Assembly (NCBI GenBank): GCA_040905465.1
Contig: JBBDRK010000066.1
Coordinates: 1-19,735 of the forward strand
Direction of reading: 5' to 3'
From: Trueperaceae bacterium
GTDB lineage: Bacteria > Deinococcota > Deinococci > Deinococcales > Trueperaceae
DNA length: 19,735 nucleotides
Part shown: piece after piece, positions 8,106 through 15,101 of the stretch
Layout of the letters: each line of letters opens with the position of its first letter
Numbering within the stretch: the first letter of the stretch is position 1
Made by a program: the position numbers and the translations under genes
The notes under the pieces: generated by a model
What the model was told of the DNA's origin: nothing
The model's database searches: none
What the model saw: the letters and a program-made list of their open reading frames with translations, nothing else

Positions 8106-8197
8106 GGCTGAGTTTACTCCCGTCGACTTCGGGCGCGATCTCCCCGGCCGTCACCTGCCGGCTCGATCTGCGCCATTGCCGGCCGGCCTTCGGTCAA

Positions 8198-8288
8198 GTG
8201 CTCACGCTTCGGCCCAGAGCTCGCGTCTCGGTCACGAGCTTGCGCCTCGGTCACGAGCTTGCGCCTCACGAGCTAACGCCTCGGTCAC
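8198..8288. repeat. Degenerate 19-bp tandem repeat, about 5 units
   Basis: Units: gtgctcacgcttcggccca / gagctcgcgtctcggtcac / gagcttgcgcctcggtcac / gagcttgcgcctcac / gagctaacgcctcggtcac. Confidence 0.85.
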
Positions 8289-9183
8289 CGACAGCCACGA
8301 CCGGCATTCGCTTGCGCGCCAGCAACTGCACCACCAGCGTCCCTACGGCCGCCAACAGCAGACCGCTCACCTCCTTGACCCCCAGCGACTCTCCCAGGAA
8401 GATCCAGGCGAGGACGGCAATCTGGATGAGCATGGTGTTGTTGATGATGCTCGACTCCATCGCCGACAGGGTGCGGAGTGTGTGATTCCAGAGGGTGAAC
8501 GCGAAGGCGGTATTGACTACGGCCAGCCAGGCGACGATTCCCCAACTCGTCAGACTGAGAGCGGGCAGGCCCTGAACGGCGATACCACCTCCCAACAGGG
8601 CGACCGCTCCCACGCCCATGCTGACTACGGTAACGGCAAGCGGTCCCAACTGCCGACCGCGATTGACAGCGCGGCCCAATATTCCTGCGCCGGCGTTGGA
8701 GATCAGGCCCACCAGGATGATCAGGAGCCCCAGCAACTGCCCTCGCGGCAGGTCGGCCGGGTAGAAGAAGAGAAGGGCGCCCGCCAGGTAGAGCGCGATT
8801 CCGAACCACTGGCGGCCATCGAGTGGTTCTCGCAGCAGCACGGTCCCCAGGAGCGCTACCAGAGCCGGACTGAACGACAACACCAGGCTCGTCGTCTGCG
8901 CCGGCAGGTATGAGAGGGCCAGGAACTGGCTCCCCTGGGTGAGCGCATACATCACGATCCCCAGCATCAGGAGCGCCCGCCAATGAGATGCCTGGAGCCC
9001 GCGCAGGCTGCCGCGCTGGAGGGCAACGGGCAGCAATACGAGGAATGCCAGTCCGTAACGCAATCCGGCGAAGGTAAGGGGCGGTATGTCTTCCAGGCCG
9101 ATCTTGATCAGCACCCACGACGTAGACCAGAGAAAGGTCACGAAGAGCGCCTGCAGTACCGAGATCCAATGTGAACGGGCCAT
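8266..9183 (-). CDS. EamA/DMT family transporter, 305 aa
   Basis: About 10 hydrophobic segments; LWSTSWVLIK, PPLTFAGLRY, LLREPL and IFLGESL mark two EamA halves. SD GGAGGTG precedes ATG 9183. Confidence 0.92.
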   Translation of the reverse strand: MARSHWISVLQALFVTFLWSTSWVLIKIGLEDIPPLTFAGLRYGLAFLVLLPVALQRGSLRGLQASHWRALLMLGIVMYALTQGSQFLALSYLPAQTTSLVLSFSPALVALLGTVLLREPLDGRQWFGIALYLAGALLFFYPADLPRGQLLGLLIILVGLISNAGAGILGRAVNRGRQLGPLAVTVVSMGVGAVALLGGGIAVQGLPALSLTSWGIVAWLAVVNTAFAFTLWNHTLRTLSAMESSIINNTMLIQIAVLAWIFLGESLGVKEVSGLLLAAVGTLVVQLLARKRMPVVAVGDRGVSS

Positions 9184-9231
9184 TCCGGAACACCTCCAGG
9201 TGGCGCGTCTCGTCATGAGCGAACCCGCGCT

Positions 9232-9404
9232 GGCCTATCCCCTCGAGGCTTTTATCCGATGAGGTGCCTGCTGGCGCCGGTGGTCCTGCCTTGCTCGGTG
9301 GCCGGGTGCTCCCGGTCTCGGACCCATCCCTGCGCCGGCTTTACGTGGCGCTCGGACCTGCCCGCGTTGCCCGCGGCGGAACCCTAGCCACCCTCCGGCC
9401 GTCG
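9232..9404 (-). ncRNA. ykkC-motif riboswitch (guanidine-I/ppGpp/PRPP fold family), atypical variant
   Basis: The minus strand carries the hallmark blocks in order: GUGGCUAGGGUUCCG (9391-9377), hairpin CCGCG/CGCGG, GGUCCGAG-C-GCCAC (9358-9345), and CAC...GG-AUAAAAG-CC (loop at 9255-9249). It lies in the 5' leader of a transporter gene. Confidence 0.85.
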
Positions 9405-9410
9405 TCTGCG

Positions 9411-9416
9411 AGTCTA
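9411..9416 (-). promoter_or_regulatory. -10 box (TAGACT) for the riboswitch-EamA transcript
   Basis: TAGACT overlaps the lipoprotein stop codon and places a start site near 9404, just ahead of the aptamer. Confidence 0.6.
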
Positions 9417-9917
9417 ACCTACCGGTGCAGCTGTCGGAGGTGCTATCGGAGGTGCTATCGGAGGTGCTGTCGCCGCTCCGACCGGCCCCCAGACCGAAGA
9501 CGGCGACGACGGCGTAATGCGCGAACCGGGAGCGAGATCGAGAGTGTACGCCCCCGTCTCGCCGGGAAACGCTGAGGTAACGATAATGACGTAGCTGCCG
9601 GTGACAGGCAGGCTGACGGTAATCACGACGTTGTAACCGTGGCCGGGACTGTCGTCTATCTCGGCTATCTTGTCGCCGTCGGGATCGAGCACCATCAGGT
9701 AGGGATCGATTGCGTCCGAGGCCAGCGAAATTGTCAGGAGGTCCCCCGAGGAGCCGGCGTAGGTGTACGTCTCGAAAAACTCACCACTTTCGAGCTGTTC
9801 GTCGCCACTGTCCAGGCGTCCGTCGGCCCCGGCGCCGGGAAGCGCCGTGATCATCGTCGGGGCGCAGCCCATCAACGTGAGCGCCACCAGGAGGAGGGGG
9901 AAGAGAGAGCGCACCAT
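9414..9917 (-). CDS. Lipoprotein with PPC-like (pre-peptidase C-terminal) domain and Pro-rich tail, 167 aa
   Basis: Signal peptide with lipobox LMGC; GDLLTISLAS-DAIDPYLMVLDPDG...DDS...LPVTGSYVIIVTS...GAYTL pattern. TATCCT (9923-9928) lies 5 nt before ATG 9917. Confidence 0.82.
   Translation of the reverse strand: MVRSLFPLLLVALTLMGCAPTMITALPGAGADGRLDSGDEQLESGEFFETYTYAGSSGDLLTISLASDAIDPYLMVLDPDGDKIAEIDDSPGHGYNVVITVSLPVTGSYVIIVTSAFPGETGAYTLDLAPGSRITPSSPSSVWGPVGAATAPPIAPPIAPPTAAPVG
9430..9472. repeat. In-frame 12-bp tandem repeat (gct[a/g]tcggaggt x3.5) encoding [T/I]APP units
   Basis: gctgtcggaggt gctatcggaggt gctatcggaggt gctgtcg. Confidence 0.9.
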
Positions 9918-14431: not shown

Positions 14432-14508
<77 letters not shown>

Positions 14509-14556
14509 AGATAGCCTCACCGCGGTAAAGGTCTCGTATGATTGGCCCGGCACCGG

Positions 14557-14632
14557 GCGGGAGTAGCTCAGTTGGTAGAGCGACAGCCTTCCAAGCTGTA
14601 TGTCGTGGGTTCGAATCCCATCTCCCGCTCCA
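14557..14632 (+). tRNA. tRNA-Gly(TCC)
   Basis: GCGGGAG...ACAGC-CT-TCC-AA-GCTGT...GTTCGAATC...CTCCCGC-TCCA, 76 nt. Confidence 0.97.
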
Positions 14633-14666
14633 AATCAGACTCAGTCCGGCGGGCGACCGCAGGCGG

Positions 14667-14742
14667 GCACCAGTAGCTCAGTGGATAGAGCAGTCGCCTT
14701 CTAAGCGATTGGTCGAGGGTTCGAATCCTTCCTGGTGCACCA
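14667..14742 (+). tRNA. tRNA-Arg(TCT)
   Basis: GCACCAG...GTCGC-CT-TCT-AA-GCGAT...GTTCGAATC...CTGGTGC-ACCA, 76 nt. Confidence 0.97.
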
Positions 14743-14896
14743 TTGCCGTGAGACTTCGAGGTGACATGTGTTCCTTCGAGAATTCTAGAAATTGCGCCTC
14801 GGCAGAATCTCACGGCAACGACCACGGCGCGATGTATGCGGTAGTTCACGCAAGACCGGAACGCCCGCAGTTTGATAGACTTGGTCTTGCGAGCGT

Positions 14897-14974
14897 GGTG
14901 GGTGTAGCTCAGCAGGTTAGAGCATCGGATTGTGGTTCCGAGGGTCGTGGGTTCGAGTCCCATCATCCACCCCA
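14897..14974 (+). tRNA. tRNA-His(GTG), including encoded G-1
   Basis: G-GTGGGTG...TCGGA-TT-GTG-GT-TCCGA...GTTCGAGTC...CATCCAC-CCCA. Confidence 0.97.
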
Positions 14975-15017
14975 TACCGCAAAGCGGTGCCGCCCCTTCG
15001 GACGGCACCGCAAACGC

Positions 15018-15101
15018 GCGAGGATGGCGGAATTGGTAGACGCGCCAGATTTAGGATCTGGTGGCTTGGCCGTGCGGGTTCAAGTCCCGCTCCTCGCACC
15101 A
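15018..15101 (+). tRNA. tRNA-Leu(TAG)
   Basis: GCGAGGA...CCAGA-TT-TAG-GA-TCTGG, long variable arm, GTTCAAGTC...TCCTCGC-ACCA, 84 nt. Confidence 0.97.

Follow-up and report, generated by a model that had tools for sequence, protein, structure and literature searches.

A putative ykkC-family riboswitch of subtype 2 character before an EamA transporter gene in a Trueperaceae bacterium

Introduction

The ykkC scaffold serves as the standard example of a single RNA fold retuned to guanidine, guanosine tetraphosphate (ppGpp), phosphoribosyl pyrophosphate (PRPP) and nucleoside diphosphates. Here, we analyse a leader that carries this scaffold in a Trueperaceae bacterium (contig JBBDRK010000066.1 of GenBank assembly GCA_040905465.1, 19,735 nucleotides (nt), called the window as a whole). 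The leader lies in a 197-nt gap on the minus strand, with an open reading frame (ORF) for a PPC-domain protein on one side (stop codon 9416..9414) and an EamA transporter gene of the drug/metabolite transporter (DMT) kind on the other. A sequence-only reading had taken it for an atypical ykkC-family riboswitch. Coordinates in the leader analysis refer to the minus strand unless marked otherwise.

The leader and its transporter gene

The EamA gene (8266..9183) encodes 305 amino acids from AUG 9183 and matches Pfam EamA with 147.9 bits (E 2.8e-43). The best NCBIfam match of its protein is TIGR00950 with 94.5 bits, under the cut-off of that model. On phn_DUF6 (TIGR03340) it scores just 16 bits, whereas the protein after another variant type of leader scores 127 bits. 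A Shine-Dalgarno (SD) sequence GGAGG (9197..9193) and the likely start codon AUG (9183..9181) together span 9181..9197, and by sequence and RNAfold the GAGGUG there is complementary to CACCUC in P3 of the leader. The in-frame ATG at 9216 from the ORF list sits in the platform hairpin and has no SD.

The putative aptamer occupies 9232..9400 and consists of P0, P1, P1a, P1b, an extended P2, P3 and a 3′ tail. The P0 5′ strand GGCC (9397..9400), followed by the purine linker GGAGG (9396..9392), pairs with the 3′ strand GGCC (9232..9235), which is also part of the downstream platform hairpin. In P1, GUGGC (9391..9387) is paired with GCCAC (9349..9345). This P1 and P1a/P1b domain (9345..9391), to which RF00442 positions 8–57 align with a posterior near 1, holds CUAGGGUUCCG at 9387..9377, GGUCCGAG at 9358..9351, the P1b hairpin between them and the marker base C9350.

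At the 3′ side, J2/3, P3 and the tail (9236..9267) read GCACCUCAUCGG-AUAAAAG-CCUCGAGGGGAUA, with CAC at 9266..9264, the AUAAAAG loop at 9255..9249 and GG/CC pairs in P3. Hence, the ykkC scaffold features are present in the window: the paired P1-P1a-P1b, the P2 hairpin and P3 with its A-rich loop. The stretch from J2/3 to the tail is the same as the consensus of 66 relatives at each highly conserved position. Elsewhere, such positions differ in the linker (GGAGG vs GAAGG), J1/2 and the P2 base only, and the pocket and docking positions are all equal to the consensus. The sequence-only reading listed the ykkC blocks in order, and all were found on the minus strand; its blocks and coordinates were right, except that it dropped one G of the tail, CCUCGAGGGGAUAGGCC, which has four.

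The extended P2 (9268..9344) has 77 nt, against 22 positions in RF00442. Single-sequence folds give it a long stem, a variable hairpin, here CCGGG-AGCA-CCCGG (9315..9302), and the motif ACCGAGCAAGGCAGG (9299..9285), an instance of RCC-GAG(A)CA(R)-GGC-A(R)G, an element conserved among long-P2 leaders. The same three-way layout appears in the single-sequence folds of 12 such leaders, and the element, written as RCCGAG.CA.GCA.G, is near-invariant in nine of these. RNAalifold on the long P2 regions gave just nine pairs, because MAFFT aligned the variable P2 arms badly. The solved ykkC structures have no counterpart to this domain.

One pairing in P2 was seen apart from this layout. The extension contains GCCACC (9302–9297), complementary to GGUGGC (9392–9387) at the P1 5′ strand, and the minimum-energy fold pairs the two in place of P1. 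This could be chance or an alternative fold.

Support for the ykkC fold

At gathering level, Rfam finds five tRNAs only in the window and no ykkC match. Below that level, RF00442 (Guanidine-I) matches 9391..9345 locally with 29.6 bits against a gathering score of 63 (E 0.0015 in 421 bases; model positions 8–57 of 107), and the same match is the best genome-wide (E 0.003). It ends at P1 because of the long P2. In the search of the whole genome with RF00442, no canonical ykkC RNA was found.

We built a covariance model, R1, of 110 positions from 32 homologous leaders, with the window left out and P0 not included. It matches the window at 9397..9235 over all 110 positions with 73.9 bits (E about 1e-15 by a rough calibration) and a 56-nt insertion in P2. 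This match is the single copy in the 3.5-Mb genome. The RF00442 match that had been proposed as the check on the riboswitch call falls below gathering, while its local E value and the full-length R1 match speak for the family.

Relatives were gathered in two scans. The tail-motif scan, run with one genome per species, gave at least 120 stretches, at least 29 of them with the ykkC 5′ block upstream and the others chance matches to the 17-mer. The metagenome scan with the 5′ motif gave at least 120 stretches as well, and the branch counts are drawn from the matches listed in both scans. Invariance inside a search pattern carries no weight, and the tail conservation was judged on the set chosen by the 5′ motif. 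On the window and 99 loci, R1 gave 96 matches: 76 lie at 84–118 bits, then comes the window, and then a group at 44–48 bits with the canonical guanidine-I tail CACGG..GGGAUAAAAGCCCGGGAG.

The alignment A4, with 82 distinct rows fitted to R1, is paired in 97.5% of cells versus 86.8% in shuffles, none of the 500 shuffles reaching 97.5%. When the partner strand is slid, pairing falls to 35–58% (maximum 57.6%). Changes on both sides occur in 13 of 25 pairs, with a covariation score of 0.275 versus 0.103. P1b covaries in five of five pairs and the P2 base likewise in five of five. For P1 no variation could appear, as the search pattern contained its 5′ strand. Covariation in the leaders of EamA genes, also proposed as a check, is thereby found.

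The closing GGCC/GGCC helix, which had been likened to that of subtype 2, has homologues too. In a scripted count over 70 distinct leaders, the homologous 6-bp helix is paired in 91% of cells in register versus 8–44% when slid. Among the compensatory forms are GUCGGU/GCCGGC, CCGAU/AUCGG, UCAAC/GUUGA and CCGGA/UUCGG, as well as GUCUGC/GUGGAC and GUCCGC/GUGGAC in three Phytoactinopolyspora records. The GAAGG linker and a GGGGA.A tail are conserved in the branch as well. Judged by fold membership, markers, covariation, gene linkage and platform geometry, all read from the letters, the window leader is a member of the ykkC riboswitch family.

A branch linked to EamA genes

Among the matches listed, an EamA homologue lies directly after 65 of the 66 distinct environmental branch aptamers that have at least 200 nt downstream (tblastn E ≤ 1e-3). 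The identities of these homologues are 40–81% with a median of 51%, and the lone exception is a degenerate copy. None of the six guanidine-type leaders in the same scan precedes EamA. Among the EamA-linked copies examined, whose ORFs were taken without a family scan, no conserved second gene was found after EamA, and no NUDIX gene follows any of them. With the Pfam match and no conserved partner gene, the EamA transporter indeed appears to be the sole regulated gene.

In the window's family, R1 matches occur in 31 of 121 genomes, and 29 loci were sorted into three leader types. Twenty-one precede EamA orthologues, the window and one truncated copy included. These EamA-linked leaders come in sub-form A with a GAAGGG linker and a long P2, and sub-form B with a GAUGAUGG linker and a short P2. 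Of the remaining loci, four precede phn_DUF6-like proteins and four precede YdcZ-type DMT proteins.

The phn_DUF6-type leaders (L012, L275, L280, L281, L035, L070, L117; also L003/L271) have neither the linker nor P0. The phn_DUF6 reference protein and L003/L271 come from G034, an unpublished genome, and no claim depends on G034 alone. The YdcZ-type leaders (L274, L276–L278, L025) carry a P0 of their own (GACCG/CGGUU) and a P1b with very long inserts.

Outside the window's family, most branch copies have record titles of Acidimicrobiia or other Actinomycetota. A strong R1 match was found in at least six of 151 genomes sampled from the class of an Acidimicrobiia record, a lower bound because the filters were strict. 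The distribution over Trueperaceae and Actinomycetota would fit horizontal spread.

Two copies are truncated. In L205, from a metagenome, the 5′ half joins an EamA leader, and in L279, from genome G109, it joins the middle of an EamA coding sequence. In both, a deletion seems to have taken out P3. Moreover, eight metagenomic leaders of guanidine-I type (L143, L144, L158, L160, L167, L172, L211, L229) have the exact 5′ motif of the EamA branch, GAAGGGUGGCUAGGGUUCC, with a canonical guanidine tail, so membership in the branch cannot be told from the 5′ linker sequence alone.

Comparison with the known subtypes

Guanidine-I has A at the P1a marker, and the PRPP and ppGpp aptamers have a pyrimidine there (PMC6031431). 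Subtype 2 is described by a pyrimidine both at the marker and at the equivalent of G67 (PMC5340920; PMC6031431). The window has pyrimidines at both, C9350 at the marker and C9263 at the pocket floor, where guanidine-I has A and G. In Dda numbering, mapped from PMC5340920 and RF00442 alignments, A38 becomes C9350, G67 becomes C9263 and GGGAG (G84, G85) becomes CGAGG. The mutations G67A, G84A and G85A are reported to weaken guanidine binding about 200-fold or down to the measurement limit (PMC5340920).

Subtype 1 is thus excluded, because the marker, the pocket floor and GGGAG are all changed, and on these letters the window leader would not be a guanidine sensor. What it shares with guanidine-I (RF00442) is the near-identical P1-P1a-P1b, the A-rich P3 loop and the three-hairpin layout. 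It differs in the pocket bases, the conserved P0, the sub-gathering score and the gene set. The claim of a ykkC fold outside subtype 1 therefore holds with C9350, C9263 and CGAGG.

The architecture is instead that of subtypes 2a–2c, in which the ends pair as P0 and have conserved flanks. The window shares with the PRPP (2b) and ppGpp (2a) aptamers (6CK5/6CK4) the four-way junction of P0, P1, P2 and P3 and a pyrimidine marker, C49 there, as well as CACC, the AG linker and a GGAUAGG tail; in the PRPP complex, bases of these three contact the ligand (PMC6031431). By a positional mapping that we infer, its letters equal the PRPP-contacting A5, G6, G48, C49, C77, C78, A101, A103 and G105 (contacts from PMC6031431) and differ around G96 and G104.

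The junction and tail around the specificity base G96 set the two apart. In 151 genomes of the phylum of G145, the PRPP/ppGpp aptamers have ACACCG where the window has GCACCU, and GGGAGG, GGGCGG or AGCGG (before GAUAGG) where it has CGAGGGG. The best R1 score there is 66 bits. The top 30 loci precede purine or branched-chain amino-acid-like genes, as judged by the N-termini alone. Hence, the window differs from 2a and 2b by GCACCU and CGAGGGG and by an EamA gene in place of genes for branched-chain amino acids or glutamate and for purine synthesis.

The nearest relative is subtype 2c, which senses adenosine and cytidine diphosphates (ADP/CDP) and their deoxy forms (dADP/dCDP) and is associated with genes for NUDIX and HAD hydrolases (PMC7266159; PMC9881157). 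A short-pattern search found three NUDIX-linked loci in three of 401 genomes (L314–L316; NUDIX Pfam E 4e-26 to 2.6e-25), one of them at the same place as an entry of Table S2 in PMC9881157. From that table we also took H23, H24 and H81, which fit the (d)ADP/CDP model best and have a NUDIX or HAD gene downstream. The NUDIX-linked loci have P0 and a GAUGG-type linker, which sub-form B of the window's family has in common with them, and they score 62–71 bits on R1.

The window's P3 and tail equal those of 2c in lengths and in the blocks GCACCU, AUAAAAG, CGAGGGG and A.AGG with identical spacing (five examples). The sequence-only reading compared P3 with guanidine-I only and so missed this relative. 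The two also share the scaffold, P0 with a purine-rich 5′ linker and an aptamer 3′ end within the expression platform. The window, however, lacks traits of 2c as taken from the five examples. Each of these five distinct 2c examples has the marker G (CCGAGGGC), and each of the 66 branch members has C. CACCU is followed by AUU in 2c, by CAY in the branch and by CAU in the window, and the window has an EamA transporter gene instead of a hydrolase gene of NUDIX or HAD linkage. In addition, the 2c loci have a U-tract terminator and the window branch a hairpin beside the SD with no U-tract, and the branch resides in lineages of high GC content, namely the window's family and, going by the titles of the records, Acidimicrobiia and further Actinomycetota.

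Subtype 2d is the published orphan. Its RNAs control transporters with EamA (formerly phn_DUF6) or TauE annotation (PMC7266159), and the EamA association, which the sequence-only reading had treated as unprecedented, therefore has a precedent in print. PMC5912903 describes 2d as most similar to guanidine-I and reports the conserved flanking stretches for 2a–2c only. Its authors propose a small charged toxic compound as the 2d ligand, since the transporters are in the same superfamily as guanidine exporters. Literature searches for a solved 2d ligand or an EamA link brought up the 2020 review and papers that keep 2d as orphan, one of them from 2023, and nothing later.

Compared with 2d by description, the window has the ykkC scaffold, a pyrimidine marker and a DMT-type transporter as the sole regulated gene in common, and also a CCUCGAGG-like P3 3′ strand when the phn_DUF6-type leaders here stand for 2d. 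The window branch differs by the linker, P0, the GGA.A tail and another EamA clade. As to the gene, it is EamA by Pfam, yet far from phn_DUF6 by TIGR03340. The phn_DUF6-type leaders fit the printed description of 2d better, because they lack the linker and P0 and their protein reaches the high phn_DUF6 score. The expectation that the window would match no subtype of known ligand cleanly was right, as the junction and tail differ from 2a/2b and the marker and junction from 2c.

Expression platform and proposed mechanism

A –10-like hexamer TAGACT (9411..9416) overlaps the stop codon of the PPC-domain ORF and predicts a transcript start at about 9405..9402. TAnnnT is present in 58 of 64 related leaders, at –18 relative to the model start in 42 of them and at –19 in the other 16, and with this fixed offset the transcript should begin just before P0. 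No conserved –35 was found in the related leaders, and a simple sigma-70 promoter scan found none at the window leader. The –10 box that had been proposed without coordinates therefore has a candidate at the conserved offset, but not a hit in the simple scan.

Downstream, RNAfold of the 3′ part of the leader gives a platform hairpin AGG-CCA-GCGCG ... CGCGC-CA-CCU (9198..9236), which shares bases with the tail and with the 3′ strand of P0. Its homologue, in which the P0 3′ strand and ACG pair with CGUGCCGAY, has at least seven of nine positions paired in 62 out of 69 leaders. From the hairpin to the SD there is a median distance of 3 nt, and the SD with a start codon is present in 66 of 69 leaders. 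A simple terminator scan found no U-tract terminator in the window platform.

One strand of P3, either the 3′ strand GCCUC or the 5′ strand CACCUC, has its complement in the SD (GGAGGC or GGAGGUG), both in the window and in its eight closest relatives. RNAfold forms this pairing once the 5′ part of the aptamer is omitted. P0 is described as part of the expression platform in the PRPP and ppGpp switches (PMC6031431).

We propose the following mechanism. The RNA would start a few bases before P0 and fold into P1-P1a-P1b, the large P2 and P3. The A-rich loop of P3 would dock on P1a and the ends would close as P0. There, P0, the purine linker and the GGA.A tail would extend the pocket, as in the PRPP, ppGpp and ADP/CDP sensors, and ligand binding would hold P0 and P3 together. 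When the ligand is absent, the P0 3′ strand and the tail would pair with the downstream hairpin strand that abuts the SD, and the CCUC strands of P3 would pair with the SD. The outcome would be ligand-induced translation of the single EamA gene.

The control of the EamA gene is thus most likely translational. We favour an ON switch, because ligand-held P0 and P3 would free the SD by the same logic as in the PRPP, ppGpp and 2c switches, and this direction is somewhat more probable than the reverse.

Other features of the window

The five tRNA genes found by Rfam are clustered in 670 bases at window positions 14432–15098 on the plus strand (62–76 bits). Two tandem repeats lie closer to the EamA gene. 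One, at 8190–8282 with 19-nt units repeated 4.1 times and an overlapping 15-nt reading, is located in the 160-nt gap from the EamA stop to the next gene, which encodes a 114-amino-acid protein with a 6-O-methylguanine-DNA methyltransferase DNA-binding domain. The other, a 12-nt repeat of 3.6 units (93% matches) at 9430–9472, is within the 3′ end of the PPC-domain ORF and so encodes a short peptide repeat right before its stop codon.

Discussion

The window leader is probably a ligand-sensing riboswitch on the ykkC scaffold, of a large and widespread EamA-associated branch of subtype 2 that stands closest to 2c. The fold, the pocket letters and the gene linkage all point this way. The pocket letters equal those of 2c save for the marker base and the junction at CACCU, so the ligand is most likely an anionic, nucleotide-like phosphorylated metabolite, be it ADP/CDP or another. 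The transporter would then move the ligand or a relative of it.

Several observations weigh against this assignment. The alignments were chosen by sequence patterns and fitted to a model. The R1 score does not separate the window from the 2c loci. Shuffled P0 partners still pair in 88.5% of cells, although none of 1000 shuffles reaches the observed 91%, and P0 is therefore mostly conserved sequence (GUCGAC/GUCGGC). In the window itself, P0 has just 3–4 bp (GGCC/GGCC) where the consensus has 6 bp, and the linker is GGAGG whereas all 66 relatives have GAAGG, a position half-fixed by the search pattern.

The folds and the relatives add to these points. The minimum-energy fold of the whole leader contains neither the aptamer nor P1 and is as stable as shuffles (z –0.10), a fold that we judge uninformative because the leader is a GC-rich 221-mer. 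There is no U-tract terminator, and by sequence the switching direction could also be the reverse. Lastly, a syntenic orthologue does without the aptamer. In the 98% complete genome G002 of the same genus, the same PPC-domain gene is followed by the EamA orthologue (72% identity). In its leader of about 100 nt (L318, 1385–1535) the aptamer was not found: with filters off, the best R1 score is 5.8 bits, elsewhere in the locus. This leader retains GAUAGGC, the GC hairpin, the SD and GGGAGGUG. The switch is thus dispensable there and was lost or gained within the genus.

Whether the window is instead a plain 2c riboswitch for ADP/CDP (dADP/dCDP) that was recruited to a transporter gene has to be weighed most closely, and we consider it unlikely. 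GCACCU, the 6-nt junction, AUAAAAG, the 3-nt strand, CGAGGGG and A.AGG are equally spaced in the window, L314–L316, H23, H24 and H81, the 2c loci, at 62–71 bits, are at the top of the non-branch ykkC RNAs scored by R1, with 66 bits as the best of the G145 phylum, and the group B leaders have the 2c-like linker. Yet the marker and the junction differ without exception in the examples compared, and a single base change on this scaffold is reported to swap PRPP for ppGpp specificity (PMC6031431). The gene sets are also disjoint, as no EamA was seen after a marker-G leader. Here the 2c traits come from the five examples. A divergent guanidine-I switch for a guanidine exporter is scarcely credible. 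Guanidine-I is the sole Rfam family that matches the leader, and guanidine exporters belong to the DMT superfamily (PMC5912903). However, the match covers the 5′ half only at less than half of the gathering score, the marker, the cation-pi floor and GGGAG are all changed, mutations of G67, G84 and G85 are reported to cripple guanidine binding (PMC5340920), and true guanidine-type leaders score far below the branch on R1 and never precede EamA among the six seen.

Membership in the orphan subtype 2d seems rather unlikely too. EamA and TauE transporters are under 2d control (PMC7266159), a small charged toxic ligand would suit a superfamily of guanidine exporters (PMC5912903), the window gene is EamA by Pfam, and the tail block CCUCGAGG is common to the window and the phn_DUF6-type and YdcZ-type leaders. 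On the other hand, the guanidine-I-like 2d of PMC5912903, which reports the conserved flanks for 2a–2c only, resembles the phn_DUF6-type leaders here rather than a branch with the linker, P0 and the GGA.A tail, and the window protein is not phn_DUF6. This comparison is with the printed description, not with an alignment, and the branch may already be included in the published 2c or 2d sets. Very improbable, finally, is a decaying or ligand-independent leader, be it a relic aptamer or a protein-bound RNA that senses no small molecule. The weak P0 and altered linker position of the window, the same gene without an aptamer in the sister species and the truncated L205 and L279 would fit decay. But the highly conserved pocket and docking positions are all intact, P1, P1b, P2 and P3 all pair, the elaborate P2 retains its conserved motif, and the leader still has its promoter-like element, a platform hairpin, an SD and a start codon.

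Within the favoured assignment to an EamA-associated branch near 2c, a bolder form can be put forward tentatively, as a possibility that we do not hold to be the likelier outcome. The branch would be a further, undescribed ykkC ligand class: P0-bearing, derived from the stock of the ADP/CDP switches and retuned by the marker and the CACCU junction to another phosphorylated or nucleotide-like metabolite, which a dedicated DMT transporter would export or import.

The transporter-linked ykkC class has been orphan since 2017–2019. The present analysis shows that the transporter-linked variants are not one thing, as three sequence types stand before three kinds of DMT transporters in one family. 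The add-on helix and the pocket near that of ADP/CDP narrow the ligand search to phosphorylated, nucleotide-like compounds, and the branch provides compact natural constructs of about 120 nt. With the ligand identified, an uncharacterised EamA clade would gain a substrate as well. If the new ligand class is true, it would mean a new riboswitch ligand together with the first substrate for this clade.

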